Positions 6,214 to 55,949 of a DNA stretch of 64,000 nt are shown here, piece by piece. The stretch is from Tubulanus polymorphus (lineage: Eukaryota > Animalia > Nemertea). The notes under the pieces are model-generated. The model had not been told where the DNA came from and ran no database searches. It saw only the letters and a program-made list of their open reading frames with translations. The stretch's first letter is position 1. Every line of letters begins with the position of its first letter. The translations under genes and the position numbers were made by a program. The DNA is taken from contig NC_134032.1 in the NCBI RefSeq assembly GCF_964204645.1, positions 7,552,275-7,616,274 on the forward strand, written 5' to 3'.

Positions 6214-7199
6214 ACATTTGGATTTCAATGGGAATAGATTTGTTTTCCATATATCTATGGAAATTTAACTCTTTAAAAACAGCATCATGGTGCGTGTCCG
6301 AGTTTGATTGATGAGCGTTTAATGTGCGGACAGCAGTTTGCCAGTCCCTCAATGAAGAGTCTGGATAGTTGAATGCCACCCTTCTCAGTAGATAGTTTTC
6401 CAAAAATACACAAGGACGACAGAATGCACCATCAAGTGATTTTGAATAGCTTAGCCATTTATAGTCATCAAGCCATTTATGCCTGAAAGCACGTGATCCT
6501 TAAGCATCAACCGCAGGTGTTCGAGGGAAGCTATAGTCTAAAGGAGGTTTCCACAGATTGTCAACAGCACTTTTCAATTCTATGTTGGTTAATTCGTACT
6601 TTTTCAGCTTGGTGTACATACAGACATCCTTAGACAGGAATCTCGTTTCACCTGAACTAAAATAAAGTACATTGTGCAATAACTTATATGGAGAATCATA
6701 TGACAAAATACATATATGTAGTGCAATGAAAATCGTTATCGTTGAGTGATTGTTATTCAGGTTCATATCCATGAATGATAAAGACATCTTGCTGGATGTT
6801 TCATTTTTCCACTCATAATTAATTTTGTATTAGAAATCTGGAATGGAATTATTTGAAAAAAGCAGATTTTGCGTTCATGTGACTAACCTGAATATTACTG
6901 AAAAAAATCAAAAGTGCATACCTTGACAAGTAATTGGCATTTTCATCAATTAAAACTGAAGACAGAGGATCTTGATCCGAATCACTTGTAGAATCGTTGT
7001 CACTTAGATCTTCTGCAGCGGATGAAGAATCTGGACCCTGTTCCTCCCTTTCATCATTTTGTCGTGTATCACCATCAACACCAGCATATGTAGAGATGTT
7101 GCATGAAGGTAGGTTTTCTGTAACGGATAGAGATTCAGGGTTTTCCTGCTCAGGAAGTGTACTTTGACCATCTGTTAAACTGGAAAAAATGGTTTGCAT
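6214..7199 (-). pseudogene. hAT transposase N-terminal remnant (TTF-type zinc finger, P52rIPK/ZMYM-like)
   Basis: Broken frames give WKPPLDYSFP...RAFRHKWLDDYKWLSYSKSLDGAFCRPCVFL...WQTA...H....H. Confidence 0.7.
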
Positions 7200-8884
7200 T
7201 AATAAATACAGCTTTCTTCGCTTGTGCCTTATTGTTCAATTTGCCAGACTATTGTGTACCTTTTGTGAATTTATGCTCCATTAGCTTATGTGCCTTTTGG
7301 GGGAGGGAGCTCAAGCCCTTTTTAACGTTATTCTACAATATTAGCCTGTCTTTTGGACCATACTTTGCTTTACCTGCCTGTCGACGAGAGCGACATAAAG
7401 AAAATTACGACAGTTCTTTAACGCACAAGTTTTATTTCACAGACGAAGATGTGTGGTTCAGTACAAATAAACAAATAATACCGTATTCAAATTAACAAAA
7501 TTAACAAAAATATAGTAGAATTATCTGTAATGTGCATAGTAGGCCTAAATATTCCCTAATTTCTAATTCCAACAGATTTTTTACTTACAAGAACCATGTC
7601 GAGTGTACGTCTAGTGCTGGCAAAAAGCCCCGAATTCTACAACATGACTTAAAATAAAGTTCTACAATACAGTAAACTATACAGGCGTGAATGTGATATG
7701 TATAGCATGAATGTAAATTCACGAAAAGCACGAAATCTAAACAGAATATAGAAATGCAGTATAAATTCAAACAGATCAAACCCTAGAAACACAGTGTGAA
7801 TATCTAATCAAAGCAAACAAGATAATAAAAAAAGAAAAAAAAGTTTAATATGTAACACGGCGCCCCCTTGACGTCTGATACTTGATGACGTCAAAACGTT
7901 ATTTCCTTTCTCAAACACCCTGAATAGAACACGCAATACGATTCATATTAATTTCAAAATGCAAAATGCAGTAACCAATAGAAATGATTCAATTAATCCA
8001 CACTTTCTTCAAGAACAGCAACCTTTGTTACCGGTCTCACAAACTCGGAAGCATTTTTGGTTCTTACTCTAACGACACGAACACGACCATCTGGACCCGG
8101 GCAAACTTCAACCACTCATTTTAAAAATTGGTTCAATCGAACAGAATAATATTGGTTCGAACGAAATAAAGTTTGTTGCGACGAAAGAATTTTCAAGCGA
8201 AAGCGAAGTAAACATTAAAAAAAAAAGGAAACCAATTTATAATCTATCATATCATTTAATTCTAACAGATAAACCACATTCGCTTATAACAACAATGTAG
8301 ACACACAACACGCATGAACAATTCTAAGCCAGAATGAAATATACATAATGTCTATTTATTTTCGTCTGACATCGATCCAGTTCCACAGTTTTACGAGTTA
8401 ACTCTGAGTTACTAAGAATCAATTCATTTCCAATGTTTTAAATCTAGAGACCAGAGTCAAATCTTAACTCGGAACTGAGTCCTGGAGAATGACCCATGGT
8501 GTCATCACAAATCCTACGTTTACGTACCATCGATTTGTATTCCTTCAGTTAATGCAGCGATACTCTGTATCACTGAATTCGCAAAGCACGTATTGCCATT
8601 CTATGGTATTGCCTAGGTTCTCCATTATTTGGAACAGTATCGTTAAGTTGTTGACTGGCGATATAATAAATTATCAAATACTAATTCCTGTCGTTGAAAA
8701 CCTGGGTCCGGTGCCCTGTCTGACAGTGGGTATACCCGTGGGAAAACCCGTTTACTATTTAAAGTAAAAATGAGGAAATTCCGCGTTTTTGGAAAATTCC
8801 GCGATTCCGTCTTTCCGCGATATGACAACACCGGTAAATTTCCAGTGTATCGGTAATATGATTTGATGAGGAAAATGGGCTATT

Positions 8885-8972
8885 AGTAATTGGAAGATGT
8901 GGGTTTCAGATCAGAGGTCGAGCGGTCGAGACACCACTCATCACCACAAGTAATTTTTTCCCCTAATAAATG
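8885..8972 (+). repeat. Left TIR of element A (88 bp)
   Basis: Reverse complement of 25831-25918; ends in TAAATG, the PolB start. Confidence 0.95.
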
Positions 8973-11900
8973 TGGGAAAATGAACAACAGCCAGAAAACA
9001 ATAATGTTAATAAAAATCAATATTATTGCCAATATTGTAAAAATTACATCGATAAATCCCAAAAATCACGACATGAAAAAACTGCAAATCATATAAAAAA
9101 TGTAATAGATTTTGAAACTCCAGAAAATTCCAATGAAAGAAAGAAAGATTAGAAAATATGAATGTTGATGAAATAAAATGTGAAGTTTGTAATGAATTTA
9201 TAGTAAAAAGGAATTATAAAAGACATCTCGAATCACAAAAACACCGCCAAAATTTGGTTAATAATGTTTTAGGAAAACATTATTTTGATGATAAACCTCA
9301 AAAAGTAAAAAAAAAAACAACTTCAAAAACTAAATCCATTTCAAATAAACCTTACATGGAAAATGTTAGAAATTATATTGATTCACTAGAAATAAAAGAT
9401 ACAATTGAAATTTTAGAAACATTACATAGTAAAATTGGTCCTGCAGCTATTATATTTAGATTTTTTAAAGGTACAACAATAGAAGATTATAGTACATTTA
9501 ATGAAATAATAGAAAAAATACTAGATTTGATAACAGATGTTGAATATCCAAAAATTAGTATCTCTGGGAAAGTAAGTTTTATAAAGTCAGAAGAAAAAAT
9601 GAATTATACTATTCAAACACACTCTGAAGAAATAATTTCAAAAACACAAATAAAAGAGCAGTTAGAAAAAATATTTAATGAATTTAAACGTCATATTGAA
9701 GAAAGATATTTAAGGGTTCTGGCTTAACATTGAATGAAATTATATATTTAGATTTAAAGGGTTACAATACAAAAAGGAATAAAACATCAAAAAGTAATAA
9801 AATGTTTAAAAATGATTCAAACTTTACAACAGAAAAGGATATTAAATTACCATTTACAACAAAAGTAGTAATAAATATTTAAAATGAAGATAATAAATGT
9901 TTTCTATGGTCAATTATTAGTTGCTTACATCCAACACAGGAAAATGTTTGTAGAATAACAGATTATCGGAAATATGAAACATTATATAAAATTGATCAAT
10001 ATCCAGTAACTATAAAAATGATTTCTGAAATAGAAAAAGTTAATAATTTAAAAATAAATGTATTCGAATTAATGCAATTACCAAAGACAAAAGGCGAAAA
10101 TATTAAAGATTATACATTGGAAGCTTTATATTTAACAGAATATTATGATGATGAAAATGCTATAGATTTGTTATATTACAAAAAAGATGAAAATGAACAT
10201 TATATGTGGTTAAAACAAATTGATTTATTCTTTAGAACAGAAAGTGATCATCATCGTAAAATTTATCTATGTAGAAAATGTTTATCTAAATTTATGACTG
10301 AGAATACATTATTAAAACATAAAGAATTATGTGATAATAAAGATTTTTGTAAATTAATAATGCCAACAGAAAAAGATTATAAATTGAAATTTACTAATCA
10401 CAAATTTAAGAATATTGTTCCATTTGTAATTTATGGGGATTTTGAATCGTTGAATAAAGAATTAACTGATCAAGATAGAAAAGAAATATATAATTAAAAG
10501 CAATTATTAAAATCAATGGATAAAGGAAATGAATCAAATGAAGACACAATACAAGACCCACCAATTATAAATACAATTTAAAAAGTTCATCAAAGAGCTG
10601 CTGCTTATGGAATTTATATAAAATCAAATTATCCTGAATTATATGAAAGTCAATATATTTCTTTTAGAGGTGAAAATGTAGTTAATGATTTTTGTGACAA
10701 AATGATTGAATTAGAAAGTGATTTTGCAAAATTATTAAACAAAAATAAAAGAATAGTTATGACAGAAGAAGATGAAATTGATTTTAATTATGCAACTCAT
10801 TGTTGTTATTGTGAAAAACGTTTTTATTCATTTGATAAAAAAGTTAGAGATCATGATCATTTAAATTCAAAATATCGTGGAGCTGCTCATGAAGATTGCA
10901 ATTTACAAGCTAAGAAAGTTAATTTCGTACCAATATTATTTCATAATTTATCCGGTTATGATACCCATCTATTTATAAAACAATTATCAAAGAAATTGGG
11001 TACAATTAATCAAGAGATAGAAGAATATAATGCTATGAATGGTGTAAATGTAAGAAAATATGATTTTAAACTATTAGCTAAAACATCTGAAAATTATATT
11101 TCATTTCAATTTGGTTGCATTAGATTTCTAGATTCTTATAGATTTCTAGCAAGTTCATTAGATAATTTATCAAAAAGTTTAGTTGATAACGATTTTGTTA
11201 TAACTCGATATTATTATCCAAATGAACAAGATTTTAAATTATTGAGATATAAAGGTGCAATTCCTTATTCATTTTATAAAACACAGAATGATTTTAATGT
11301 AACAGAATTATTAAAAGATCAATTTTATGATCAATTAAAAGAGGAGTATGTGAAAGACGAAGTGTTTAATAGAACATTAAATATTTGGAACCATTTTAAG
11401 ATGAAAAATCATGGCGAATTAGTTGATTTATATTTAAAATCAGATGTTATGATATTGGCTGACATATTTGAAAAATTTAGAGAAGTTAATTTGAATCATT
11501 TTAATGTTGATCCTTGTTATTGCTACTCTAGTCCTGGTTTAACCTGGCAATGTGGTTTAAAATATACAAATGTAGAATTAGATTTATTAAAAGAACCAGA
11601 TATGGTTTTATTATTTGAAAAATCAATTAGGGGTGGAATTAGTGGTGTTATGGGAGATAGGTATTTTAAAGCAAATGATGAATATAAATTATTATATATT
11701 GATGCCAATAATTTATATGGTTGGGCAATGATGCAACCTCAACCATATAAAAATTTTATATTAACAGAAGTTGAAAATGATGATAAAACTGATTAGGAAA
11801 GCGCAATTGTGAGTTTAAAAGATGAAGCACCAATTGGTTATTTCTTTGTAGTTGATTTAGAATATCCTGAAAATATTTAGTTTAAAACAAGAAACTTACC

Positions 11901-13960
11901 TTATTGCCCAGAACATTTAACTGTAGATGATAGTTATTTAAGTGAATACCAGAAGAAAATAAAACCGAAAGATCATGTTTTTACAGAAAAATTAATACTT
12001 ACTCAAAATAATAAATACAATTATATTGTTCATTAAAGAATGTTAAAATTTTATCTAAAACAAGGAATGAAATTAAAGAAAGTACATAGATATATTGAAT
12101 TTAATCAATCGAAGTGGTTAGAAAAATATATAGATTTCAATACTCAACAGAGAACAATATCAAAAACAGATTTTGAAAAAGATTTCTTCAAATTAATGAA
12201 CAATAGTTTTTATGGTAAAACATGTGAAAATATTAGAAATAGAAATGATATTGAATTAGTAAATAATTCTGAAAGATTAAGACATTTACAATCAAGTCCT
12301 AGACATTTAGGAAATAAAAGATTTGAAGATTATTTAACAGCAGTTAAATTAAAAAGAACGTCAATGAAATTTAATAAACCTATATTCATTGGTTCAACTG
12401 TTTTAGAAGTATCAAAATTATTAATGTATGATTTTTATTATAATGTTTTACAACCACTTTTTGGAGAAAAGCATATTGAAATATTATATTTTGATTCTGT
12501 TACAGCTGACACCCCAATATTATTAAAATGTAATAATAAAATATTGATAAGAAGAATTTCAGAAATAATTCCAAAACAAAATGAATGTTATATTTCATAT
12601 GGTGAAAAAGAATTAATACAAATAAATGGTTTAATGGATATTTGGACAAGAAATGGATGGAAAAAATTAAAGAATATTATTAGGCATAAAACAAATAAGA
12701 AAATCTATAGAGTTAGAACTAAATTAGGGTTCGTTGATGTTACAGAAGATCATAGTTTAATTAAACGAAATGGCGATGAAATAAAACCAACTGATATAAA
12801 AATTGGAGATGAATTATTACATAAAAGATTTTTCCAAAGAATGAATCATATGTCATTTGATGAAATAATTAATAATATTTATAACGTAGAACCCGAAACA
12901 TTAGAAGAAAAAGAAAATTTTATCAAAGGATTTTTCATGGGAGATGGTTCAGCAGGTGTGTATAATTATGTTTGGGGTAATAAATTTTGTTGGTATTTAT
13001 GCAATCAAGACTTGAAATTATTAGAAAGAATTAAGAAATTCTGTGAAGAAGTTTATTCACATAAAACATTTAGGATCGTGGATAATATGAAATCATCAGC
13101 AGGTTATAGAATACTTGTAAATAATCCTAAAGATTTTGCTATAAAATATAATGATGAATTCTATATTCATGCAATAGTGAAAAGTAATACTTCAACAAAA
13201 GAAAAGATAGTTCCAGATTATGTATTAAATGCAAAAAATAATTTAAGAAAATGGTTCTTCATTGGATTCTACGCAGCAGATGGTTCAAAAAGTTTCAAAA
13301 ACCGCAAAACGATATCTTTAGCTCAAAAAGGAAAAGTTGCTATATCAGGATTCAATATATTATGCAATTCATTGGGTTTTAATATGAATATTGGATTGAT
13401 TAAATCTAAACCAAATTGCTTTAATTTAAGCCATGTAGAAAATGAGTTAACAGAAGAAGTTAAGGATTTATTTGAAATATATAACCCATCAGATTATGTT
13501 TATGATTTATCAACTGAAGATGGTACATTTAACTGTGGATTTCCATAATAGCAGTCAATACTGACAGTTACATACTAAAAATCAAGACAAATGATATAAC
13601 AAAAGACTTAAAAACAATGATAATAAAAAGATTCCTGGTAAATTTAAAGATGAACTAGGGGGTGATGAAATGATTGAATTTGTTGGGATAAGAAGCAAAA
13701 TGTATAGTTATAGAACAAAAGATCATGAAGCTAAAAAGTTAAAAGGAATAACAAAACATGTGGTTGATAAACATATAGAATTTCAAGATTATATAAAGTG
13801 TTTATATAACTCAATTGTAATGAAACACAAAATGAATTGTTTAAGATCAGAAGATCACGAGATGTACATTAATGAAGTTGAAAAAACTAGTTTGAATCCA
13901 TTTGATGATAAAAGGCATATTTTAGACGATGGTATAAAAACATTACCTTATGGCCATTAA
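8970..13960 (+). pseudogene. polB: Protein-primed family B DNA polymerase of element A (N-terminal zinc fingers; several stops and frameshifts; intein-interrupted)
   Basis: KCFLWSI, PFVIYGDFES, VRDHDH..YRGAAH..CNL, FHNLSGYD, RFLDSYRF, SIRGG, YIDANNLYG, KLMNNSFYGK, YFD|TDS, EFVGIRSKMYS, FDDKR. Confidence 0.95.
12496..13559 (+). mobile_element. Intein with LAGLIDADG homing endonuclease in PolB motif C (about 355 aa; 1-bp frameshift near its C-terminus)
   Basis: YFD|SVTADTPILLK...VTEDHSL (block B TxxH)...FIKGFFMGDGS...FFIGFYAADGS...YVYDLSTEDGTF...IAVN|TDSYILKIKT; element B has contiguous YFDTDSYILKIKT. Confidence 0.92.
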
Positions 13961-15273
13961 AACATAAAATCAATATCATCATAATCGAAATCACTATTGG
14001 TTTCTTCATTTTCATTTAATTGTTTAGGTTCTTCTTCCATTTCATTTTTCTCATTTAAATAAAGTTCTATCTTGTTCCACATTTCATCTCGCTCTCTTTG
14101 TTTCTTTTTGTTTGTTAATTCATCAAATGGAATTATAATATCTAGGTTTAAATAATTTACAATCTTATTTAAAAAGAATTCATAATTTATTGAATCTGTT
14201 ATTCTATTTTCCAAATGATACATTAATATTTGTTTGAATATTTTGTTTATATTTTTCATATCTTCTTTTGTTAATTTAGGTTTTTCATAATAATCGTTAA
14301 ATAATAAATATAAATACATTTTCTTTTGTTTTGTGTTAAATGTTGACGGAATAATTGTTTTTATAATATATTTTTTAGGTATTTCACCATTTTTAAATTC
14401 TATTATTTTCATTTTTTCAAGCCATTGCATATATTCTGGTGTATGATCTTCTATAGAAAATATTTTAAAAATTTCATCTAGATAATTTAATTTTGGATCT
14501 ATGAGAAAATTTCTAGTTTTTTCTTCACCCAATAAATTCTTTTGCCATCCACATTCATTACAAAATAACACAGTACCTTCTTGTCTTAAGGTCGCATTAC
14601 TACATTGTGGACATTTTCGTTTATAATTTATTGGTAATAGATCTTCATTAAGTTCCTGGTATTTTCTTACGTTTTCTTTATGTTTTATTGTTCTATTATG
14701 TAGATTTGAATTACTTGTTGTAATAATCAAGTTACAATATTTACAATAATATGTTTTTCTTGTTAATTCATTATATTGTTTTTCTAACTTTTCAACTGTT
14801 TCTTTATTATCTGGTAACGTTTTCTCATATTTTATTTTTTCTAATAAATTATCTTTTCTTTCATTGAATTCAGTTTCAAGTTTATTAGAAATTTTATCTA
14901 TATGTGCTTTACGAAATTGATGATTCTCCCAATCTTCTATATTTTCAGGGCTATATTTTACTTGACAAGGCTCACAGATATGATCTTTTATATTATCCTT
15001 GTCATAGAATAAGAAAGGTCTTTTCCAAATAACTTCAGGTTCAACTTCTGCAGAATTACTATTACTTTCGTTACTATCAACATTAGCCGTTGCGCCATTA
15101 ATTTTACACTTCTCTGAATGTTTTTTAACATAATTTCTTGAGAATAATTTATTACATTTTGGACAGTTTAGTTTAGGGGGTTTATAATTTTCTTCATGTT
15201 TTTTCATATGTCGAGCCATATTACTTTTTCTTAGAAGTTCACCACAAATTTCACATGCTATCTGCTCATCCAT
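13957..15273 (-). CDS. Multi-zinc-finger protein with C-terminal VLTF3 (poxvirus late transcription factor 3)-like domain
   Basis: Intact 438 aa; several C2H2-like fingers, then CPQC...FCNECG ribbon and INKIFKQI...SINYEFFLNKI...KKQRERDEMWNKI, which resembles the VLTF3 C-terminus. Confidence 0.6.
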   Translation of the reverse strand: MDEQIACEICGELLRKSNMARHMKKHEENYKPPKLNCPKCNKLFSRNYVKKHSEKCKINGATANVDSNESNSNSAEVEPEVIWKRPFLFYDKDNIKDHICEPCQVKYSPENIEDWENHQFRKAHIDKISNKLETEFNERKDNLLEKIKYEKTLPDNKETVEKLEKQYNELTRKTYYCKYCNLIITTSNSNLHNRTIKHKENVRKYQELNEDLLPINYKRKCPQCSNATLRQEGTVLFCNECGWQKNLLGEEKTRNFLIDPKLNYLDEIFKIFSIEDHTPEYMQWLEKMKIIEFKNGEIPKKYIIKTIIPSTFNTKQKKMYLYLLFNDYYEKPKLTKEDMKNINKIFKQILMYHLENRITDSINYEFFLNKIVNYLNLDIIIPFDELTNKKKQRERDEMWNKIELYLNEKNEMEEEPKQLNENEETNSDFDYDDIDFMF

Positions 15274-15341
15274 TTATTTAGGAAAAATTTTATTAAAATT
15301 AATTTTTAGTGATGAGCGGTAATTTTTTTATGTTATAAATA

Positions 15342-15906
15342 ATGGTAGAATTAAAAGAATACAGAATTTTTGTTGATTCTAGAAGGATTATATAATTTAG
15401 ATACATTAGAACAAGAAATTAATAGAAAAGCTCGAGCTAAATTAGGAAGTGATTCTAAATTTAATATTAAATTCATAAAAAGTGAGAGCTCTAATAAAAT
15501 TAAAATAAAGTTAGATGATGAAAGTAAATATGCAATTATGGTATGGAAACCTTTAGCTAAACTGTTAGGAATTGAACCACTATCTGTTACAGGAAACGTA
15601 GGCGGTAATTCAAATATAATACCTTTTACACATTTTTATATTTATTGCAATTTAATTGACACAACAAAAACATTTGAAGCAACTAAAGATACAATTTGTA
15701 ATTCTAGTATATTAAATATTTTACCATTAAAAAATGTCAAACAATTTGGAACGCAAATAAATTATAATTTAACTGAATGTGATTTTAAACCTTGTATTCC
15801 ACATTTCAATAATTTTAAATTAGAAATTAGAAATCATAATGGATATTTAATTGATTTGAAAAACTTTCCTGTGATATATGAATTAGTTATAAGATGTAGA
15901 GAGTAA
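15342..15906 (+). pseudogene. Minor capsid (penton)-like protein, internally deleted
   Basis: MVELKEYRIFVDSR start, GLYNL..L, FYIYCNLI, ILNILP, LEIRNHNGYLID; homologous to 46780-47531 but lacks its N-proximal segment. Confidence 0.6.
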
Positions 15907-15922
15907 TTTTTTCACTATATAA

Positions 15923-16282
15923 ATGAATATAACTGTTGGACCGAGTATATGTTTTGGATTTGATTTTAAACGTGAGAAAGAAATGAAATTTAACGTTAAT
16001 GATGTAATTACACATATCAAAAATATTGCATATTCTAATGAAACAACATTTGAGTATGAAACAACAATAAATAAAGAAACTTTAAATGTAAAAAAGATTA
16101 CTAATTCAATTAGAGAATCTTTAAGATTTTATGGATTAGATGAAGATTTTATCATAGATGATATTAAAAAAATTATAATTGAAATATATGATAATCATAA
16201 AAGTAGTAATGAAATAAATGTTGAATTAATCATCACTAAGATAACTAAATATTTTGAAGATAGTAATTTTTTTGATAAATAA
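15923..16282 (+). CDS. Conserved element protein, 119 aa, unknown function
   Basis: Near-identical copy at 46404-46763; TAAATG start. Confidence 0.8.
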   Translation: MNITVGPSICFGFDFKREKEMKFNVNDVITHIKNIAYSNETTFEYETTINKETLNVKKITNSIRESLRFYGLDEDFIIDDIKKIIIEIYDNHKSSNEINVELIITKITKYFEDSNFFDK

Positions 16283-16504
16283 ATGAGTGATAATAAGTGG
16301 ATAATAACTGGATTATATAATGGCGCCTTACTATCAGTTGGAACTGTTGGTTATTCAATGGTATTTAAAAAAGTATTCAAAATGGGAAGTGTTAATGTTG
16401 ATAGATTTGATATAAATTATATTTTAAAATTAACATTAGCAGTTACTTTATCTAATTTAACTATTGATTATTTGGAAAAACAAAAATATATTCCTCCCAT
16501 ATAA
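16283..16504 (+). CDS. Small hydrophobic protein, 73 aa
   Basis: Two hydrophobic segments; near-identical copy at 46186-46407. Confidence 0.8.
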   Translation: MSDNKWIITGLYNGALLSVGTVGYSMVFKKVFKMGSVNVDRFDINYILKLTLAVTLSNLTIDYLEKQKYIPPI

Positions 16505-16521
16505 TTTTTTTTGCTAAATAA

Positions 16522-16944
16522 ATGGCTTCTGCAATTATAACTATTATAGGATCGGCAATTGTTAACGCTTTAGCATTTACTGGTGGTGGATATTTAGTTA
16601 AACATATTGATAAAAATAGTTCATTAGGAGAACAAAGAAGACATAACTTAGCATTAGAGAAATACAATAAAGCTGCAGAAGAATATAGAGAAAAAAGACA
16701 AAACTATATGGATTACATCAATAAAGAATTATATGACCAGAAGATTTCACATAGAGATTTTCAATCAGTTGATGATGCAATGAGTTTATATAACGCGGTA
16801 ACCAATAAAGAAAAATTACATCTATACAAACCTAAATTATCAGATTATTATACCCCGAGTAAAGAACAACAGAAATATGAAATAATTTGGATTTTAGGGG
16901 GAACAGTTATTGTTATATTTGTAGCATATAAATTTACTAATTAG
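16522..16944 (+). CDS. 140-aa protein with hydrophobic termini and central coiled region
   Basis: MASAIITIIGSAIVNALAFTGG...RRHNLALEKY...C-terminal TM; near-identical copy at 45738-46160. Confidence 0.85.
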   Translation: MASAIITIIGSAIVNALAFTGGGYLVKHIDKNSSLGEQRRHNLALEKYNKAAEEYREKRQNYMDYINKELYDQKISHRDFQSVDDAMSLYNAVTNKEKLHLYKPKLSDYYTPSKEQQKYEIIWILGGTVIVIFVAYKFTN

Positions 16945-16963
16945 TAATTTTTATTCTAAATAA

Positions 16964-17390
16964 ATGGAAGATAAAGTTGATAATATTGATATTATTCCTC
17001 ATGATATAAATAAAACTAAATTAAAAATATATTTAGAAAAACAAATATTAGAATTTGAAAGTAACTTAAAAGTTAAAAAGAAAAAATATTTAAAATCTAA
17101 AATTATATATTATTTGATTATAAGTGGTTCGGTTACAATTAGTTCTGTAATAACATTTCTAGCAATATTCAGTCCATTAACACATTTAGCTATATCAATT
17201 GGCGTATTAGGATTAAGTTCAAGTGTTTTAACTGGTATAAGTTCAAAATTGAATATAAAAAGTAATAAAGAAAAAATTAAAACTAATATAAAAGAAATTA
17301 AAGAACACACTAGATTATATAATAAGTTTAAATGGCCATATAACAGTTGAACAACAAGATAAATTATTAAAAGAATTAATAAATTATTAA
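16964..17390 (+). pseudogene. Two-TM protein with coiled tail (frameshifted)
   Basis: Homologous to 45279-45712; the two copies carry different lesions. Confidence 0.75.
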
Positions 17391-17406
17391 TTTTTTAATT
17401 ATATAA

Positions 17407-18795
17407 ATGGTAGATAGTTTTCCAAAAGCTTTCCAATATAATAAATCAATTAAATATAATATTCCAGCAATAGATTTTAATAAAGATATTACATATAGAA
17501 ATGAAGTTTTAGATTCATTAACTAATTTAGAAATGTATGTTACTGAAACTAATAATTTTAATGCAAAGATGGAAAATATATTTCATGTATATTTAATTAA
17601 TTTTAAAAAATTGAAAGATGAAAAACAATGGTTATTAAAATCTAATATGAAGTATTGGCAGAATCAATTAAATTTTGCTGTTTATTGTGCAACAACAGGT
17701 TGTGGAATTATTTGGAATGATCATTTGAATAATTCTGAATATAAATTAATTCAAAGTTTATTTAGATTTCATACATACTTTCAAATAAGAATAATATTAA
17801 ATGAATTAGAGTGCGCTTTACCAGGATCTAGGTATTTTAAAGAATTAGATAATAATATTAATTTATCAAAGTTTTATAAAATTTGTAATGAATTTAATAT
17901 AGATATAAATAATTCTGATATTAGAACAAAAATTGGAACAATAAGATCACTTCCTTGCCCTAAAAAGATTGCAGAATATTGTGCACTTCCCATACCATCT
18001 AATAGTTTTTATAATATCTATAGTAATAAATTAGGTTATGGTAAAATAGAAACTAAGGATTTAGAAACATTAAATTTCAATAAATTACCGACATTTTATG
18101 ATAGTTTAAAACAAGAAAATAATAATGGTTGGGTTTATTTTATTTTAGAAAATAATGAAGGTTTTACGAAATCAGGTATACAAAGAATAAATCAATCTAT
18201 TAGAACTTATTTGATATGTATTCTAGGTGCACAAGTTGAAACAAGATCACCGATAATTGGAAATTTGAATACATCATTCGATACACAAAAACAATTTAAA
18301 GTTTTATTTGAAGATTCCATACATAATGATAAAAATAGATCGATTCCAGAAAACATTGTCAGATATCAAAATTATTTAGATAAATCACATATTAGATTAA
18401 ATTATTGTATAGGCCCTAATCTATTAATTATTTCTAATGATTTAGTATTAAAGGTGGGAAATATAATTGGTTATAATAATCTAATAAAAACTGCAACAAT
18501 AAATAATTCATTTGGATTGAATGATATAAATAAATAGATTATTACTGCTCCAAAATTAATGGAAGGTGTAAAAAATAAAAAACATATTCAATCAACAGAA
18601 ACTAAAACTAAGAATATTAAATTGGATAATGACTCCAAAATAAAAGATTACAATACATCAGAAAATATAAGAACTGATAATATTCAACATGATATAATTA
18701 AAACTGATAATGATAATAAATCCCATGAAAATACTAAATTAGCTTTAACTTGTATAGGAATTGTTATATGAGGAATATTATATTTTAAATTTTAA
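17407..18795 (+). pseudogene. Conserved ~460-aa element protein with C-terminal TM (internal stops)
   Basis: WQNQLNFAVYCATTGCG motif; homolog at 43912-45262 reads through the stop at 18535-18537. Confidence 0.8.
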
Positions 18796-18811
18796 TTTTT
18801 TTATTATATAA

Positions 18812-20258
18812 ATGGATGTAGAAGGTGGAGAAGATATTGGAATGGATAATTTTGATGAACCTGGCATAACTGATGAACAACCACCTGATTTTGATGAAAC
18901 AAGTTTTAATGATGGCAATGAGCCAGAATGTAATAATAATTTAAATATGCCTGATTATATTAAAAATGCAGAATCACAATTAAATCCTGAAAATTTAGAC
19001 CCAGATTTAGTTAAACAAGATTTAGATAATTTAAACAAAATACCTAAATTAGAAGATTGAAAAATCTAAACTTGACATAAATGATGAAGACGTTGGACTT
19101 TTAGCAGATCAATTAAAATTTTTAGATAATGGTAAATGTTATTATCGTTTGAAAGGTGATTATTATATTGATATCACTTCTAAAAATAATAAAAAAATAT
19201 TAGCGGAATCAACTTTGAAAAGTTTAAAACCAGATAAAATTAAAATAATAAGTAATAGTAATGAAATAACTGATGTTACACAAAAAGAAATAGATGATAA
19301 TATAGACGTATTTAAACAAAGAATTAATGAATTATTTGAAATAATCAAAAAGAAATCAGAAACAGAAACAACTTCTGAACAGAATATAACTTCCAAAAAT
19401 AGTAAACTTAAATCAAATAAAGTTCCAATTGAAAAACTTTTACCGAATGGATTACTTGATGCAACAGATCAAGAATTAGAAGATTTAGATATATTTTCTG
19501 ATAAAGCAATTAGAGAGATTATTAGTATAAGAAATGCATCTGATAAAATTGCGCATGATAAAAGTATAAGAGATTTTAAAATTAGAACTTTGGAAAAAGA
19601 CAGAACTGATAAAATTAAAGAAATAGAACAATTAAAATTAGATAGAGATAATAAAGTTATTAAAGAAATTGAATTTAAAAAAAGAAATGCATATTTAGAA
19701 AAAGAAATTGATGATTTAGAATATAACATAGAATTACAAAAAGAAGAAATTAAATTATTATTAAAATCATATGATTATAATATTAATAGATTAAAAGTTA
19801 TTTTTAAAGATTTGTTGATAAAACCAAATTCTGAAATATCATTGAAAGATAGAATAAAGTTATTATTTAAATTAGAAGGAATAACAATTCTTTCAATTCT
19901 AACAGCTGTTACTATGTTATTTACAACAATTGGTTTAGCAATATCAAATGCTTTAAAATCTACTCCTACTCCAAATAAACCAGATAAACCCCCAGGCAAT
20001 AATTCTATACAAGATAAAGTTAAAGATGGTTTAAAGAAATTAGCAAAATATTTATGGGAACTATCGAACAAATCTGCTGCAGCATTACCAGGAATTATTG
20101 CATCAATTGTTGGTTTTATATTGAAATCTGCAGGAAACATTATTAACTTTGCTGCTGAACATATTATTTTATTTTTAATAACAGTTGTTAGTGCAATTAT
20201 TTTTGGGTTAGTGAATATGATATCAAAAAGATATCAAGAAAAAAATAATAAAAAATAA
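18812..20258 (+). pseudogene. Acidic N-terminus / coiled-coil / C-terminal hydrophobic-helix protein (broken)
   Basis: Two ORF pieces align with the intact 491-aa ORF 42420-43895. Confidence 0.8.
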
Positions 20259-20282
20259 ATAATTAATTTTTTTGTTACATAA

Positions 20283-22539
20283 ATGAGTGGGAGTTATATA
20301 AGTCCTTCTAAGATTTCTAGAATATCTAATGCTATTAAAGCAGAAAGATCACATCATATAATTACTCATAACCCTTCTAATATTAATCCCGATGAAACTT
20401 TATATGTTAGAATTCCTAGATTAACACAAAATACTTTTTATGTTCCAAATAGTATTTATTTATCAGCTGATATAAAAGTAACTGGCCATGATAATAATTA
20501 TGTTGTTGATAATGTTGGAAGGTATTTGATTAAAAAATTAACTATAAAGATTGGTCCAGAAACAGTTTTCTCATTAGATGATTATAATTTATTTATGCAT
20601 TATAAAGATTTATGGTTAACTAAAGAAAATAGAAATACAGGGTGTCCCATTAATTACTATACATAAAGAACTGCCTGTCATTTTCAAACCGCTTGAGATA
20701 TATCAGCCAAATCTTCAGGAGAGATGGACTACAATAATACTTTTCACCACAAAAATTACTTAGCTAAAATCAAATTAGTTTAAAAAATATGCTGGATGGG
20801 AGAACCTTTCAATTTTCTCACATGATTCAGTCTATTGTTGAAATTTCTCAGTACATTGACAATCATCTGTGTTATTGCAGTTGTTTCTCTTTAAATCATC
20901 AATAGTTTCTGGCTTGTTTTGGTACACTGTGTCCTTCAGCTAGCCCCACAAGTATCCAGTGGATTTAAGTCAGGCGAGTATGGGGCCCAGTCGTTTACAG
21001 TTTGGAGCGCTGAGATTCTGTCACCGAAATGCCTATGCAGAACATCAATTGTTTTGTGTGCTGAAAGACATTGCCCACCATTCTGTCGGGACCACACAGG
21101 ATTGAGACATCCTCTAGACATCTACGAATTTTGTAATGGAGTACTGAATCAGCATCTTATGATAGCTGGCTCCATTCATAGTCAGCATTTCCTTTTTTGT
21201 CAAAAAGGTATGGCCCGATTATAGGCCCACTGGATGACCTACTGTATGGCAAATCCAAAGATCACACCTCGTAGAGAACAGACAGCTCACTTGATGACAT
21301 TGATAAAGTGGCTTCTCTGCAATCAAATAGGGATTCTTGACACCAAAATCTATGGTTCAGACTGACAGAAAGATTTGGTTTCCTAAAACCAGCATACCAT
21401 CTAGGCTTTTTGTTTCAGAGACATAGATATGATTTAACAGTGATCTATTCTTAATCAGAATTATACAAAATCACTACAACAATGTAATCAGTTGCTAGCA
21501 AATCACTAAGCAAATTACCATAGCAACCATGATAATAATCAAAAAGTACTGTTACATTCTATCATTTGGTGGAAAATCGAAACATTTCATTAAGAAATGT
21601 GGAGGATACAGGCAGTTCTTTATGTATAGTAATTAATGGGACACCCTGTAATATGATATTTCAGGGTATTCAATCGGAAAACCATAATAAATTAAGATCA
21701 GGAGCTAATGACGCAATAGTAACTCGTGCCACAGATAATTTGATTAAAAAGATTTATGGAAGCAAATATAAAATTCAATTAGACTTTGAATTGATAAATA
21801 ATAATGCACCTTTATATAAATATGTAATTCAAGAAGATATTATATTTGAGATAACATTTGCTCCTGTAAATGAAATTGTATTATCTAGCGTTGTTAAAGA
21901 TATGGGTTATAAATTATCGAATATATGTTTAGAATATGACACAGTAACTAATGAAAATATTGCTAGTACAATTCAAACTCAATACAATCAAGGATTTTCA
22001 TTATTATATGATTATATTGATAAATTTAAAACTGTAACTATTAATGCAAATGATGAAATTATTAATGAGAATATTAACTTCCCAAGAAGATCGATTAAAG
22101 GTATATTAATATTTTTTACCATTGCAACATATTCTAATGGCGCAATAAAGGTAGATAATTATTATAATCCTGAAATAACAAAAGTAGAAATAACTATCGA
22201 AGGAATAGCAAATAAAATATTTTGTCAAGGAATGAGAATGATTGATCAATGGCCAGAAATTAGAAAACATTTTATGAATGAAAAAGTAAAATCATTTGAA
22301 AATTGTAATATTAATCAAATTGATTATTATACCGGCAATAAATATGCATTATGGTTGGATTTTAGAACAACAGAGGATAATTCATTACATGGTTCTGGGA
22401 AAAAACTACAGAACACTAAAGATGGAATACAATTATTTATGAAAAAAAAGGAAGCTTAAATTTCAAAATGCACATTAATATTATATCTGACGCACAATTA
22501 AATATTGTAAATTCACAATTAGATAGTTTTCAATATTAG
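20283..22539 (+). pseudogene. Major capsid protein of element A, interrupted by a Tc1/mariner element
   Basis: HIITHNPSNI..ETLYVRIPRL...NVGRYLIK...LSNICLEYD...INFPRRSIKGIL...YNPEITKVEITIEG...KYALWLDFRT; removing 20638-21650 restores KENRNNMIF as in element B. Capsid identity inferred from size, position and family resemblance. Confidence 0.75.
20638..21648 (-). mobile_element. Tc1/mariner-superfamily element (1011 bp, degenerate transposase)
   Basis: Perfect 41-bp TIRs CAGGGTGTCCCATTAATTACTATACATAAAGAACTGCCTGT, TA TSD on both sides, WAPYSPDLNPLD motif on the minus strand. Confidence 0.95.
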
Positions 22540-22569
22540 AAATATAAAGTTAAAATTAAGGATATATAA

Positions 22570-23698
22570 ATGGGAGGTAAAAAAAACTCCTAATACTAAA
22601 GAACAATATTTAAGAAATTTATATTACAACCCTGAGAGTTCGGTTGCTTATTCTTCTACCAAACATATATGGCGTCAAGTAAAACAAGATAAATTAGATA
22701 AGATAATCCCACAAAATTTAGTTAAATATAAAGATATAAATGAATTTATGTTAGAACAACCAACATATACAACACATAAAAAAATTGTTAGAAAATATAA
22801 AACTCGTAAAACTATGGTAAGTTATGTAGATCAACAGTGGCAAGGAGATTTAATTGATATGAAAAATGTTAAGAAAGATAATGATGATTATTGGTGGTTA
22901 TTGAATATAATTGATATTTTTAGTCGTTATGTATGGAGCTTCCCACTTTATAGAAAAGATGCTGTACAAACATCAAATGTTTTAAGAAAATTTCTTTCGG
23001 ATGATAAACTAAAACCAGAAAAAATACAATTTGATGATGGAAAAGAATTTGATAATTCACTTGTTCATGAACTCTTAGATAATCATAATATTAAATATTT
23101 TTCAACAAAATCGGATAAAAAAGCAGCAGTTGTTGAACGATTTAATAGAAAATTAAGAACAAGAATGTGGAAATATTTTACAGCAAATAATACTTTTAAA
23201 TGGATTGATGTTTTACCAAAATTGATAGAAGGATATAATAATTCTTATCATTCTTCTATTGGAATGAAACCTATTGATGCTAGAAAACCTAAAAATGCTG
23301 AAATTGTTTGGAATAATTTATATGGAGCATTTCTTGTAGATGATTTTGGTGAACCTAAATTTAAAGTTGGTCAAAATGTAAGAATTTCTAAGTATAAAAA
23401 GATATTTGACAAAGGATACGATCGAAATTTTACTAGGGAAATATATAAAATAAAAAAGGTAATAACAACAAAACCATATGTTTATAAATTCGAAGATTTA
23501 GATGGTGAAGAAGTTGATGGGTATTTTTATGAAGAAGAATTGAGTTTAACTACTGAAAATCTAGAACAAGAATATAAAATTGAAAAAGTATTAAAAACAA
23601 AAACTATTAAAAGAAAAAAATATTCTTTAGTAAAATGGGTTGGATGACCAGATAAATTCAATGAATGGATATTATCAAGTAAAATTAAAAATATATAA
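22570..23698 (+). pseudogene. Retroviral-like (RVE) integrase with C-terminal chromodomain, element A
   Basis: WQGDLID, IDIFSRY, IQFDDGKEF, VERFNR, YNNSYHSSIGMKP, FKVGQNVRIS, YKIEKVLK...LVKW; frameshift near start and a late stop. Confidence 0.92.
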
Positions 23699-24289
23699 AT
23701 GAATAAGGAATTATTCATATTTGAGCCTCATAATATGTTAATTTCTGGTGTAACAAATTGTGGAAAAACCTATTTTATATTAAATTTATTAGAAACTGTT
23801 TATAAAAACTATTTTGATAATATAGTATTATTTTGTCCAACATATGAATTTAATCAAACTTATGATAGAAATATTACTAGAAATAATAAATTTATTATAT
23901 TAAATCCTAAAACAGTAAAAGAAAATTTAGAAAATTGTATAAAAATAGCAATTGATACTTATAAAGGATCAAATACATTATTCATTATAGATGATTGTGC
24001 AAATTTACATGATTCAAAAGTTAGAGAAAGTGAGTTATGTTATCTAGCTTTTTCTGGTAGACATTTTGGGATAACAACTTGGGTTTTAAATCAAAAATAT
24101 AATTCAATTGTTAAAGACTTTAGAAAAAACATTAGATTTCTAGTTTTATTCTACAATAAAGATAGAAAATCGATGAAAAATGCATTTGAGGAAAATGATA
24201 TTATTCCACATGATTTACATAATGAATATATGGATAAGTTGAAAAATATTAAAAGATCAAAAAAACCGAGATCACAGCAAACAAATTGA
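23699..24289 (+). CDS. A32/FtsK-like genome packaging ATPase, element A (C-terminus lost by deletion)
   Basis: Walker A GVTNCGKT, Walker B FIIDD, GRHFGITT..LNQ. Confidence 0.9.
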   Translation: MNKELFIFEPHNMLISGVTNCGKTYFILNLLETVYKNYFDNIVLFCPTYEFNQTYDRNITRNNKFIILNPKTVKENLENCIKIAIDTYKGSNTLFIIDDCANLHDSKVRESELCYLAFSGRHFGITTWVLNQKYNSIVKDFRKNIRFLVLFYNKDRKSMKNAFEENDIIPHDLHNEYMDKLKNIKRSKKPRSQQTN

Positions 24290-24590
24290 ATGGTCTCGGC
24301 AATTAGGAATTAAATCACAAGAATATAAAAAAGCTGTAAAAGAAAAAATAAGAAATAAAAATGTTAATAAAAATGGTGAAAATATTGTTATTTCTACTCC
24401 TTCTAATAATAGAATATTTGATAAATGTATATATTTTACAGTTGGATTTGTAACTGTATTCATTTTAATTGGGCGTAATTGGTATAAGAAATCAAATAAA
24501 ATTCATGGTATTAATAATTCTGAAACAACTGCTATCAAAAATGAAAATACTTCTGAAATTCCAAAATTGACAATAAAAAAAATGGATTAA
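24260..24590 (+). pseudogene. Remnant homolog of the 119-aa TM protein 38007-38366
   Basis: KKPRSQ..QIEWSRQLG...TM...KKMD matches KKARSEKQIKWARELG...TM...LLMD. Confidence 0.65.
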
Positions 24591-25510
24591 TATTTTAGAA
24601 AAAAAGCAAAAAATAATTTTTTTTAATGAATTGAATATCTCACTACTATTGTTTATCTATAGGAGCAGTAATTATAACTGTCCAGATAAGTCATTTCGGA
24701 TTCTTGATCTCATCTAAATCCTCAAACTGAAAATAAATTCAAAGAAACGACTGGTGGAAATACTATTTCATAAACACATATATTTTATTCTACAATCATT
24801 ATCGATTTCCACATTCCTCACCGGGCGTTTGAGGCCCGGCAAGTTATGCGTGGAATGCAGGAATCAATAAAGTACAATACAACATCTGTCACTGTGTGTC
24901 ATTAACAACAGCTTAATGACGCAATTGAAATTCCGGCAAACGTAATGCATTGAAAGTCTATACAGTATGGCTAAACTGCTACAGTCTCATGAATTGAAAT
25001 ATCCGTAATTTCTGATTTTACATCCTTCCATATTCACTTTCTTGATTCAATGGTCTTCATTTTGTTATCTAAAAGATAAATATCTAGCGTAGAATAAAAC
25101 TAACTTGAAGTTGTAGTTGTAAAATATTAATTACAACACTTAAACATGGCCATTTTGTGGCGCATCTTACCAGGATAAGTTTTACATGTTTAACGTTTCC
25201 CGGCGCTTAATAACAACAAAAACAGTACTTACATTTATAACTGTAAACTCCTAAAATTGTTTTTATAGAGAGAATATCCTATGCGTTCCTATGCTCATGT
25301 GTGTGTTGTATGTACTGCGTGCTTATTTTATAACTGCTAGTTATCCAATATAACAACAACGTTGTGCAACACCTGTTTGATTGATCAATATTCAAATGAA
25401 GCACTCTCTTATAATAAAATGTAACAGATGTTTGACTGTATGATTGTAGTTGTTTATAAAACGACTAAGGTCATTTTGGATTCTAGATATTCATTATTTT
25501 TATTTTTTAT

Positions 25511-25833
25511 TTAATCAACAATTTCTAAATCATGATGACCGTCTTCATTTTTCCCATGGTAGATTATTTTAAATCCTTCTAAATCTTTTAATTCCTCTGT
25601 ACTCAATGAAACCCATTTATCAGATGAAAATACTTTAAATTCTCGTGATGTACTAACATTGCAGTAGCTTAAATTAGCTGATACTTTCCATATTTAGTTT
25701 TTATCTTTTCTAATTTCAATATTTTATGTTCAATTTCTTTTGTAACATCAACTAACTTTTTTATTTCAAATTGTTTTTTTGCTGGTTTTATTCTGTTATT
25801 TATTGTTGCTAAGAATGGTTTTCTATCTCCCAT
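25511..25833 (-). pseudogene. Frameshifted homolog of the 117-aa protein 47549-47902
   Basis: Starts at the TIR TAAATG; TKYG...LSTEELKDL...IIYHGKNEDGHHDLEIVD matches NNYG...LSSEDLEEL...FVYKGKNEKGHHEIDFE. Absent from the ORF track. Confidence 0.7.
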
Positions 25834-25918
25834 TTATTAGGGGAAAAAATTACTTGTGGTGATGAGTGGTGTCTCGACCGCTCGACCTCTGATCTGAAAC
25901 CCACATCTTCCAATTACT
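25831..25918 (-). repeat. Right TIR of element A
   Basis: Reverse complement of 8885-8972, followed by TSD GCTATT. Confidence 0.95.
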
Positions 25919-30458: not shown

Positions 30459-31545
30459 GGGCGACAAAACCAAAGAAAATTAATTGTCGCGGGCGATGAA
30501 ACCAAAATAATCAATTGTCGCGGGCGATAAAACCAATATAATCAATTGTCGCTGGCGATAAAACCAAAATATTGAATTGTCGCGGGCGACAAAACCAAAA
30601 AAATGAATTGTCGGGGGCGATAAAACCAAAATAATGAATTGTCGCTGGTGATAAAACCAAAATATTGAATTGTCGCAGGTGATAAAACCAAAATATTGAA
30701 GTGTCGCAGGCGATAAAACCGCGACAAAAAAAAATTGTCACGGGCGATAAAACCAAAATAATGAATTGTCGCGTGCGACAAAACCAAAATAATGAACTGT
30801 CGCGGTGAAAACCAAAATAATGAATTGTCGCGGGCGATAAAACCAATATAATCAATTGTCGCTGGCGATAAAACCAAAATATAGAATTGTCGCGGGTGAT
30901 AAAACCAAAATAATGAATTGTCGCGGGCGATAAAACCAAAATAATGAATTGTCGCGGGTGATAAAACCAAAATAATGAATTGTCGCAGGCGATAAAACCG
31001 TGACAAAAAAAAAATTGTCGCGGGCGATAAAACCAAAATAATGAATTGTCGCAGGCGATAAAACCAAAATATTGAAGTGTCGCAGGCAAAAAAACCGCGA
31101 CAAAAAAAAAATTGTCGCGGGCGATAAAACCAAAATAATGAATTGTCGCGTGCGACAAAACCAAAATAATGAATTGTCGCGGCGATAAAACCAAAATAAT
31201 GAATTGTCGCGGTGATAAAACCAAAATAATGAATTGTCGCGGGCGACAAAACCAAAATATTGAATTGTCGCGGGCGACAAAACCAAACTAATGAATTGTT
31301 GCGGGCGATAAAACCAAAATATTGAATTGTCGCGGGCGATAAAACCAAAATATTGAAGTGTCGCAGGCGATAAAACGGCGACAAAAAAAAAATTGTCGCG
31401 GGTGATAAAACCAAAATAATGAATTGTCGCGTGCAACAAAACCAAAATAATGAACTGTCGCGGGCGATAAAACCAAAATAATGAATTGTCGCGGGCGATA
31501 AAACCAAAATAATGAATTGTCGCGGGCGACAAAACCAAAATTATT
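30459..31545. repeat. 31-bp satellite array
   Basis: Unit AATTGTCGCGGGCGAYAAAACCAAAATAATG, head to tail, no spacers. Confidence 0.95.
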
Positions 31546-34240: not shown

Positions 34241-34561
34241 TTTGTCGCGTTATTTCAGTTTTGGCGTTTTGTCATAATGTCGCCCTCATTTGCATATACG
34301 TGTTTTTTTTTACGCATGGCCCTTATCAGCCACCATACTAAAGCCTTAAGGTCGCGTAAAACTCGATAAACACTTCAAGCGACACAGCGAACGATCTCCT
34401 TTCCCCCACAGTGAACGCTTAACCTAGTAGAGGCTACTAGCCTAGGTAGGCCTATGTATATCCGTAGGCCTAACATCCGGACAGATTGGTCGTAGGCCTA
34501 TTGAATAACAACCCACCTGAATATCGAAAATTTTGTTTTGAAGTTCAATCCAATGAGTCCG

Positions 34562-34956
34562 AGTAATAGGGAATATGTTGTTTCAGGCCAAAGGTCGAAC
34601 GGTCGAGCTCATTAAAAAACAAAACATTAAAAGTAATTAAAAACTATAATATATTTTCATAACCGAGCGCATTTTATATTATAACTAAATATTTATTCTA
34701 AGATATCAATAATTTAAATAGCATATTGTATTAAATCAATTGGTCGCTCCACTTCGCTACCGCTCCGCTCCGCGACCAATTGATTTATTTACAATACACA
34801 AATTCATATAATCAAATATATTCAAATAATAATAATATTCAACTGAAATACACACGGTTATGAAAATATATTATAGTTTTTAATTACTTTTAATATTTGT
34901 TATTAATGAACTCGACCATTCAACCTTTAACCTGAAACAACATATTCCCTATTACT
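34562..34956. repeat. Terminal ~395-bp imperfect palindrome of element B
   Basis: AGTAATAGGGAATATGTTGTTTCAGG...CCTGAAACAACATATTCCCTATTACT with apex stem AAATCAATTGGTCGC...GCGACCAATTGATTT. Confidence 0.9.
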
Positions 34957-55640: not shown

Positions 55641-55949
55641 GAATGATGCAATCGTGAGTTGAAATAATACCTGAACAAATCGATGCACAGACATTTACTT
55701 TATATATCTACTTGAACAATCGAGCCTACTCAGTAATATACTCAGTTTTTACGAAACCTGGAGTTTTTGTTTCAGAGAAATTTGAGTATCAGTATCCGAT
55801 GCTATATACTAACGTTAACGTTAGTTATCATCGCTCCGTCATGCTAAGTTATACATTTCATGTCAACCAGTATCTACAGGCAGCTGTACAGTGTGTACAC
55901 ACTATATCTGAATACGAGGCTGGAATAACAGGCTCACTTCACGTAGGTT

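Follow-up and report, generated by a model that had tools for sequence, protein, structure and literature searches.

The window analysed here, a stretch of 64,000 nucleotides, comes from the genome of Tubulanus polymorphus, a nemertean (Nemertea, Metazoa), and holds a DNA polymerase gene whose catalytic motif is split by an insertion that the original prediction read as a homing-endonuclease intein. The available text of a 2021 review (PMC8529194) describes inteins as absent from metazoan genomes, an absence on which it rests its argument for intein inhibitors as antimicrobials. This locus raises the question of whether the insertion is a true intein, whether it belongs to the animal genome, and how it came to lie there.

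The insertion spans 1064 nt (12496–13559, forward strand), a length that is not a multiple of three. The upstream polymerase frame (...ILYFD) runs into it at 12495|12496, giving the N-terminal junction YFD|SVTADTPI, and a stop-free frame of 350 codons then extends across 12496–13545 to ...FNCGFP; the same frame was open in 0 of 2000 base shuffles. All the features announced by the original prediction were found in place, namely the split of YFD|TDS with Ser1, the TEDH block B, two LAGLIDADG motifs and VYDL. The N-terminal splicing region (12496–12753) reaches from block A with Ser1 (SVTADTP) to block B, T83-E-D-H86, with VTEDHS starting at 12739. The two LAGLIDADG motifs follow on the same strand, GFFMGDGS with Asp150 at 12928–12951 and GFYAADGS with Asp262 at 13264–13287. 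The C-terminal splicing region (13498–13559) comprises block F VYDL (VYDLST, from 13498), a frame break, and the Asn that precedes Thr+1. This break, anticipated as a frameshift near the C-terminal end, occurs just after 13545, beyond which A-V-N-T-D-S-Y-I-L-K is read in another frame, with NTDS at 13557–13568. The insert has a GC content of 25.8%, near the 21–25% of the polymerase, so that composition shows no sign of a recent arrival.

The profile search that had been proposed as a check on the Hint and LAGLIDADG assignments upheld both of them. TIGR01445 (intein_Nterm) scored 30.8 bits against a cut-off of 24.5, with the N-terminal nucleophile Ser1 and the block B TxxH present, and PF14528 (LAGLIDADG_3) scored 30 bits against a cut-off of 22.5, while PF14890, at 29.6 bits, stayed under its cut-off of 35.8. 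An AlphaFold2 model of the 350 intein residues, obtained from an 11-row alignment (pLDDT 82.7), predicts a Hint fold with two LAGLIDADG helices (residues 136–150 and 248–262) that carry the acidic Asp150 and Asp262. The best Foldseek matches of this model were the TliVMA, PhoVMA, PI-PkoII, PI-PfuI and PI-SceI inteins (E from 6.5e-15 to 6e-9); solved homing-endonuclease inteins thus share the predicted fold, at sequence identities of 10–17% for PI-PkoII, TliVMA, PI-PfuI and PI-SceI. An Atlas search with the intein matched LAGLIDADG/intein clusters only. By its N-terminal residues, its modelled fold and its endonuclease motifs, the insert belongs with the motif C LAGLIDADG inteins, this copy being broken at its C end, and its reading as a true LAGLIDADG intein at the PolB motif C is supported. 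A Hedgehog-type or bacterial intein-like Hint domain was also considered and ruled out, as this insertion holds an endonuclease, lies within a catalytic motif that it interrupts, and is matched by precise empty alleles.

In the copy under study, the terminal Asn-Thr lies out of frame behind the break, and the same junction is in frame in 18 of 19 pPolB relatives. The penultimate residue is Val, as had been noted and put down to either decay or a variant. A penultimate His is common in inteins but not universal, and it is not a required feature. Among the 19 pPolB rows this position is occupied by His (16), Lys (2) or Ser (1) and never by Val, which was found in one of 85 other rows, where Lys is commonest. 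Since Val is rare and adjoins the frame break, a variant is no more probable than decay, and we do not count this residue as a functional variant.

The intein is carried by a Polinton, element A (8885–25918, 17,034 bp), bounded by 88-bp TIRs beginning AGT (left, 8885–8972, forward strand; right, 25831–25918, reverse strand, 100% identical to the left one) and flanked on both sides by the 6-bp TSD GCTATT (8879–8884 and 25919–25924). Its HNH-type Polinton polymerase (pPolB) is divided into an N-extein (9015–12495; PF03175 and tblastn; six stops and a frame change) and a C-extein that starts with TDS (13560–13960), in which about 15 codons are missing with a frame change near 13613. Further along the same forward strand lie a major capsid protein gene (20283–22459; PF16903 weak, E 9e-4, below cut-off), an rve integrase (22523–23647; PF00665, E 2e-10) and an A32-type packaging ATPase (23699–24289; PF04665, E 3e-14). 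PF03175, PF00665 and PF04665 were above cut-off, and no Pfam match for an adenain-like protease or a minor capsid protein was obtained among the ORFs scanned. The six polymerase stops fall within 9703–12495. The reading frame is altered near 9709, again near 13545 and once more near 13613, and the capsid gene is interrupted by a 1013-bp inverted-repeat element (20636–21648). Element A is a dead Polinton copy on these grounds, and its intein, accompanied by six polymerase stops and frame breaks, is likewise dead and cannot splice as it stands.

Integration of the element in animal DNA, on which the original prediction depended, was borne out by the TIRs, the TSD and a host exon, and 1558 reads showed the host repeat unoccupied by element A. 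The exon (62678–62866, forward strand) matches a protein labelled acidic phospholipase A2-like from a 16.7-Mb contig of Tubulanus polymorphus with 100% identity over 79% of a 63-aa query (two matches among 39 candidates), which places the window in the animal genome; it had no match in the Atlas. In run X4 of organism A, a contig matched the window flank 6400–7408 without difference, and the intein was found in the same run. Runs X7 and X8 of the same organism gave one short record each, with no bearing on expression, and run X5 (marine metagenome, share 0.07; 13 short pieces) was left out of the analysis.

Read depths were derived from run X6 of organism A, about 12% of which was read. At 85% likeness, depth was 128–259 over the intein and 286–572 over the upstream extein; at 92% likeness, it was 128–198 over two intein bins versus 4 and 12 over two outer flank bins. 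These depths suggest roughly 10–50 intein-bearing copies, a rough figure to which free element DNA may contribute. The C-terminal frame break was absent from 67 of the 128 reads at that position. The coexistence of occupied and empty sites in one genome was sustained: in 160 reads, the sequence continues past 12495 into an empty site, the first 30 bases of which, compared by eye, match element B. An intein-free junction with A-like sequence to the left and to the right was seen in only two reads, so few open targets may exist in the lineage of A itself. Taken together, the reads indicate that the intein is common in the lineage of element A and that the empty sites seen are mostly B-like. The read differences listed within the intein (8 synonymous and 11 not, n=19, for the rows shown only) are uninformative.

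Element B, also in the window, supplies the empty site itself. Its intein-free pPolB gene (48013–51964, reverse strand) reads YFDTDS without interruption at 48471–48454, as expected, and the DNA alignment between A and B ends exactly at 12495, the N-terminal junction of the intein. Around the motif C site, 25 of 30 nucleotides are the same in the two elements (14 of the 15 left-hand positions, 11 of the 15 right-hand ones). The description of element B as an empty allele held for the site and not for the closeness of the relationship: with only 72.7% DNA identity across the polymerase, B is a sister polymerase lineage rather than a close allele of A. Identity rises to 89.6% in the capsid-side module, and the two elements are mosaics, which implies that recombination between lineages occurs. 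The element B polymerase has two stops and frame changes near 49157 and 48490. The original prediction had mentioned neither that the polymerase genes of A and B are both otherwise broken nor how limited their identity is.

Two protein searches with the intein returned 31 matches of similar length and 361 longer ones, 120 of the latter being listed. A parsable intein was present in 104 of the 194 proteins collected, 19 of the pPolB type and 85 others, nearly all of which are RNA-primed PolBs, with three topoisomerases. The 19 pPolB proteins have the whole intein in frame, between D|S...N|T junctions in 18 and with N|A in one. Polinton-type proteins are the best matches, first P0075 (1693 aa, 61–62% identity) and P0076 (1537 aa, 136 members, on contigs of up to 1.0 Mb), then P0078, P0081, P0083, P0085, P0086 and P0063. 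The nearest relatives of the element A intein are other Polinton pPolB inteins, 42–62% identical over full length, while non-Polinton full-length inteins in the protein searches were at most 41% identical. Both LAGLIDADG motifs and their Asp are kept in all eight full-length alignment rows at 41–49% identity, and several lineages far from one another have unbroken intein-bearing polymerases of 1476–1693 aa whose splice junctions are intact. No mini-intein was found among the 19 pPolB rows (333–354 aa) with the full intein as query. We infer that the other intein-bearing pPolB proteins also come from animal hosts.

Scans of viral and metagenomic data gave intein-bearing PolBs with 28–41% identity over full length, many on contigs labelled giant-virus MAGs; an intein was parsed in 146 of 198 loci, at D|S...N|TDS in all of them. 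The original prediction is supported in its comparison with giant-virus PolB inteins at motif C, in that these are the nearest non-Polinton relatives of the present one. One Polinton-type locus, L038 (4.2 kb, without neighbours), was obtained from the JGI metagenome, IMG/VR and GTDB scans. When the extein served as query, the intein was present in none of the top 150 matches (131 empty, as are element B and P0221, and 19 not scorable at the site), which confines it to a small part of Polinton diversity.

Intein and extein histories were then compared. Across 10 HNH-type sequences, intein identity correlated with extein identity (r 0.69, Mantel p 0.0008), and between element A and P0075 the value is 62% for intein and extein alike. 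An extein tree of 149 rows placed all 16 intein-plus rows, 15 of which had been added from the intein searches, in one 39-row group with a support of 92. The starred branches of this tree force six gains or losses, and empty sisters stand beside four intein-plus groups. P0078 departs from this pattern, as its intein belongs to the pPolB clade (41–49% identical) and its extein is only 18–32% identical to the rest, a mismatch that needs a jump between polymerase types; for placement of its intein inside versus beside the HNH-type pPolB inteins, the AU test gave p 0.24. As far as these sequence comparisons can tell, the later history appears to be one of co-divergence with repeated loss or re-invasion.

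These data are probably best explained by a mobile intein residing in motif C of Polinton polymerases, which would be spliced out of the products of intact copies and spread by homing between related Polinton copies. The insertion, its site and motifs, the modelled fold, the integration, the copy number and the distribution were observed; splicing, cutting and homing are predicted. Class 1 splicing is established chemistry, relying on Ser1, the block B His, Thr+1 and the terminal Asn. By standard intein chemistry, Ser1 would undergo an N-O acyl shift aided by the block B His; attack by Thr+1, then cyclisation of the Asn, would restore YFDTDS with its catalytic Asp. Once released, the LAGLIDADG domain would cleave motif C in closely related copies that lack the intein, and their repair on an intein-plus template would transfer the intein with some of its flank.

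Alternatively, the intein could splice and no longer home, having been gained once and inherited vertically, with the empty sisters arising by precise loss through recombination with empty lineages. The parallel divergence of intein and extein and the agreement of the deep topologies are in line with this account, and the mosaic structure of A and B shows that the inter-lineage recombination it invokes takes place. Homing domains that are out of use usually decay, however, and here both LAGLIDADG motifs with their Asp persist in every full-length row examined at 41–49% identity, the pPolB rows, recovered with the full intein as query, contain no mini-intein, and P0078 calls for a horizontal jump. 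We regard splicing with purely vertical inheritance as unlikely.

Signs of homing were sought in families with both forms. The P0076 cluster was represented by 15 of its 136 members, 13 of which cover the site (P0377 ends before it, and P0379 was left out of the comparison); seven are unbroken intein-plus proteins of 1537–1539 aa and six are empty. The empty members differ from P0076 at 11–15 of the 40 residues beside the site and at 1–5% of residues elsewhere (Fisher p from 6e-6 to 6e-15), their flanks occurring in several variants; the other intein-plus members differ from P0076 at 1–3 of the same 40 residues. Uniform intein-plus flanks beside varied empty ones are what co-conversion and the survival of resistant copies would leave, although recombination with a different lineage that removed the intein would account for this pattern just as well. 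In a second family, the empty P0203 and the intein-plus P0200 are 98–99% identical, and their flanks are identical at the protein level. Both comparisons concern proteins from assemblies, in which the two forms are not tied to one genome.

It is possible, if somewhat less likely than not, that animals host a working intein and that this LAGLIDADG intein is still homing between Polinton copies scattered through animal germlines. If so, it would act as a natural gene drive at the protein level inside a family of transposons or endogenous viruses: the intein would carry its own flanks through that family, divergent empty alleles that resist cleavage would remain, and it could cross from one polymerase type to another. 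Families in which intein-plus and empty copies are about 98% alike make splicing and homing in animal cells testable.

The origin of the intein was addressed with three trees: a quick search on 93 rows, with six near-copies and inteins shorter than 320 aa dropped; a tree of 50 hand-chosen rows; and a 41-row tree, for which 13 rows were dropped for speed and four archaeal-MAG rows added. All three trees unite the pPolB inteins in a single clade (SH-aLRT 100, 100/99 and 100/100, respectively), on a long stem. Given that the nearest relatives are Polinton inteins, that these group together and that their divergence parallels that of the exteins, the acquisition is old and ancestral to a Polinton polymerase lineage. 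Such an outcome is the one that the original prediction had named as refuting a recent acquisition. Rooted on three archaeal motif C inteins, the pPolB clade nests inside the giant-virus-type inteins (node 96/97), and the giant-virus group formed one clade in 0 of 200 bootstrap trees, L118 being ungrouped in this count. Monophyly of all non-Polinton inteins was not rejected by the AU test (p 0.096), so the direction from giant virus to Polinton is likely without being significant; the p value of 3e-6 obtained when L118, the sister of a giant-virus-type row, was left outside the tested group was set aside. The history may have begun with a single ancient transfer into an HNH-type Polinton polymerase lineage, for which a giant-virus PolB is the most likely source; co-divergence would have followed, with the intein lost and regained by homing more than once and moving at least once into a second type of polymerase.

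Transfer could also have run the other way or through a third party, such as a Polinton-like virus or a virophage, so that giant viruses would not be the direct donor; how probable this is was judged separately from the mechanism. The AU result and the long branch of the archaeal outgroup leave room for such a course, which we nevertheless hold to be improbable, given that the archaeal-rooted pPolB clade sits under two starred nodes within giant-virus-type diversity and that the giant-virus inteins did not group together in the bootstrap trees.

Another account would make the intein-plus Polintons non-autonomous, the insert inactivating their polymerase and empty elements replicating them in trans. 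Element A is indeed dead, empty lineages coexist with it in the same genome, and splicing of the intein is itself a prediction. This account is nonetheless very unlikely in view of the unbroken polymerases with intact splice junctions in several distant lineages and of the conservation of the exteins over such distances, which implies selection on a working polymerase. The conserved intein-split polymerases imply that these Polintons are translated and replicate with a spliced enzyme.

That element A or its immediate ancestor recently gained the intein from a co-infecting giant virus, as the original prediction supposed, is extremely unlikely: although the nearest non-Polinton inteins, found in PolBs on contigs that bear a giant-virus MAG label, occupy motif C at the same site and the nearest extein neighbours of A, P0221 and B, are empty, the nearest intein is that of the Polinton pPolB P0075, the pPolB inteins make up a single clade on its long stem, full-length identity to the best viral contigs is no higher than 40%, and intein identity follows that of the Polinton extein.

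Returning to the putatively mobile motif C intein, its closest described counterparts can be compared feature by feature. The Mimivirus PolB intein is located at YGD|TDS. According to the available text of Ogata, Raoult and Claverie (2005; PMC549080), it has 351 aa with Ser/Asn/Thr, and like the element A intein it combines a length of about 350 aa, Ser1, the block B Thr/His, a LAGLIDADG domain, a terminal Asn and Thr+1, the last two lying behind the frame break in element A. The exteins differ, as that of element A is a protein-primed Polinton polymerase (PF03175) and the Mimivirus-type enzyme is an RNA-primed PolB (PF00136 and PF03104). Unlike the Mimivirus intein, moreover, the gene described here is integrated in many copies in an animal nuclear genome. 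The intein of Chilo iridescent virus sits in ribonucleotide reductase. That intein, of a virus of animals, is cited in the available text of PMC549080; it is Gln-terminal and belongs to a free-living NCLDV without integration in the host genome, whereas the element A intein is integrated. Archaeal PolB motif C inteins occur at the same site in three archaeal MAG polymerases, branch outside the group of viral and Polinton inteins, and are 26–28% identical to that of element A.

Inteins in viral-like DNA polymerases on nuclear scaffolds have been described in Klebsormidium, Tetrabaena and Honda, together with virus-mediated intein spread in Anaeramoeba (PMC10710043, available text). Those cases resemble ours in that a virus-borne polymerase intein resides in a eukaryotic nuclear genome; their hosts, however, are algae and protists, whereas the present intein is carried by a self-synthesising element that exists in many copies and shares its genome with empty targets. 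Polintons, Mavericks, animals and Metazoa are not mentioned in the accessible parts of that paper and of two of its supplements. The accessible parts of PMC12220804, PMC4760082 and 10.64898/2026.10.13.758929 contain nothing on Hint inteins of Polinton polymerases, and the literature covered, with most subscription papers and all bioRxiv supplements outside its scope, yielded no account of a Hint intein from either a Polinton pPolB or an animal genome.

The novelty lies in the carrier and the place: protein-primed Polinton polymerases, many integrated copies in an animal genome, and an old, patchy intein clade. Because the intein is not in a host gene, the statement of absence in the available text of PMC8529194 holds for animal genes proper and fails for animal genomes. 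The findings also suggest that genes have passed between giant viruses and Polintons, at a catalytic motif which two highly dissimilar classes of polymerase have in common.

Polinton polymerases with inserted endonuclease domains are known in another form. HNH and VSR insertions in Polinton pPolBs have been described (Jeong et al., 10.1101/2023.08.22.554363), in a text whose accessible part contains neither the word intein nor LAGLIDADG, and endonuclease insertions in these polymerases have been suggested to result from intein invasions (Krupovic et al., PMC11161782, available text), a suggestion to which the element A intein gives concrete form. The element A insert shares with them the presence of an endonuclease domain inside a Polinton polymerase and differs from them, as far as the accessible parts of these two papers describe them, by its Hint domain, by splitting the catalytic motif and by its precise presence or absence. 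In the Polinton polymerase, the intein co-occurs with an HNH domain.

Alignment of the two Polintons at the DNA level revealed that elements A and B are mosaics, their capsid-side modules being far more alike than their polymerase or integrase/ATPase modules. The capsid-side module (15384-20637 in A versus 47299-42031 in B) is 89.6% identical, whereas identity falls to 72.7% for the polymerase (9048-12495 versus 51931-48463) and to 75.6% for the integrase and ATPase (22598-24262 versus 38379-40032). The relative orientation of this last module also differs between A and B. The uneven identities and the change of orientation suggest that modules have been exchanged between Polinton lineages.

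The termini of element B are unlike those of A and consist of a 400-bp inverted repeat (97.8%) at 34561-34957 and 51864-52262, overlapping an imperfect palindrome of ~395 bp that starts with AGT at 34562. No target site duplication was found at these two ends, and a host repeat directly adjoins the right one. Near its left end, element B also contains a 113-bp tandem repeat (35943-36206) and a weak HNH_4 ORF (36697-37101, Pfam E 0.028).

Element A lies in a high-copy host repeat, which flanks it at 8834-8884 and 25919-26113. Among the raw sequencing reads of the organism whose runs match the window's flank and the intein, 1558 carry this repeat in its unoccupied form, without element A. Position 26113 is joined back to 8834 in 1595 reads, which suggests that the repeat is a tandem unit. 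The capsid gene of A harbors a 1013-bp inserted element (20636-21648) that has TA at its ends and is bounded by terminal inverted repeats of ~40 bp; this element looks like a Tc1/mariner-type insertion and is missing from 339 reads. Elsewhere in the window there are host satellite arrays with a 31-bp unit (30459-31541, 32840-34249, 52672-52936 and 54195-55641), which give rise to spurious Med25 Pfam matches, and a 154-bp repeat (53011-53605). At positions 3-1922 a host retroelement has left a reverse-transcriptase ORF, whose match to PF00078 falls short of the cut-off.

Related inteins were also found in other proteins. P0078 (1603 aa, 5.3-kb contig) carries an intein of the protein-primed polymerase (pPolB) intein clade at YLD|TDS; it is a pPolB of another type, with an extein only 18-32% identical to the other exteins compared, and a VSR-like motif was read in it by eye. 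Type II topoisomerases form a second ectopic site of the family, at D|S...N|TDG, represented among the matches listed by P0080, P0181 and P0182, whose inteins group in a separate clade of their own in the intein tree. In Chloropicon primus, a protein named DNA polymerase delta (P0185, 1.86-Mb contig) matches the intein with 31% identity over 99% of its length, and is possibly, judging from this match, an intein-containing cellular Pol delta.

Finally, Polinton-type polymerase fragments bearing bacterial labels (Candidatus Thiodiazotropha MAG; Bartonella sp.) were retrieved on contigs of 0.8-2.5 kb. These fragments, P0083, which contains the intein, P0222 and P0371-P0373, are probably host DNA inside bacterial assemblies.
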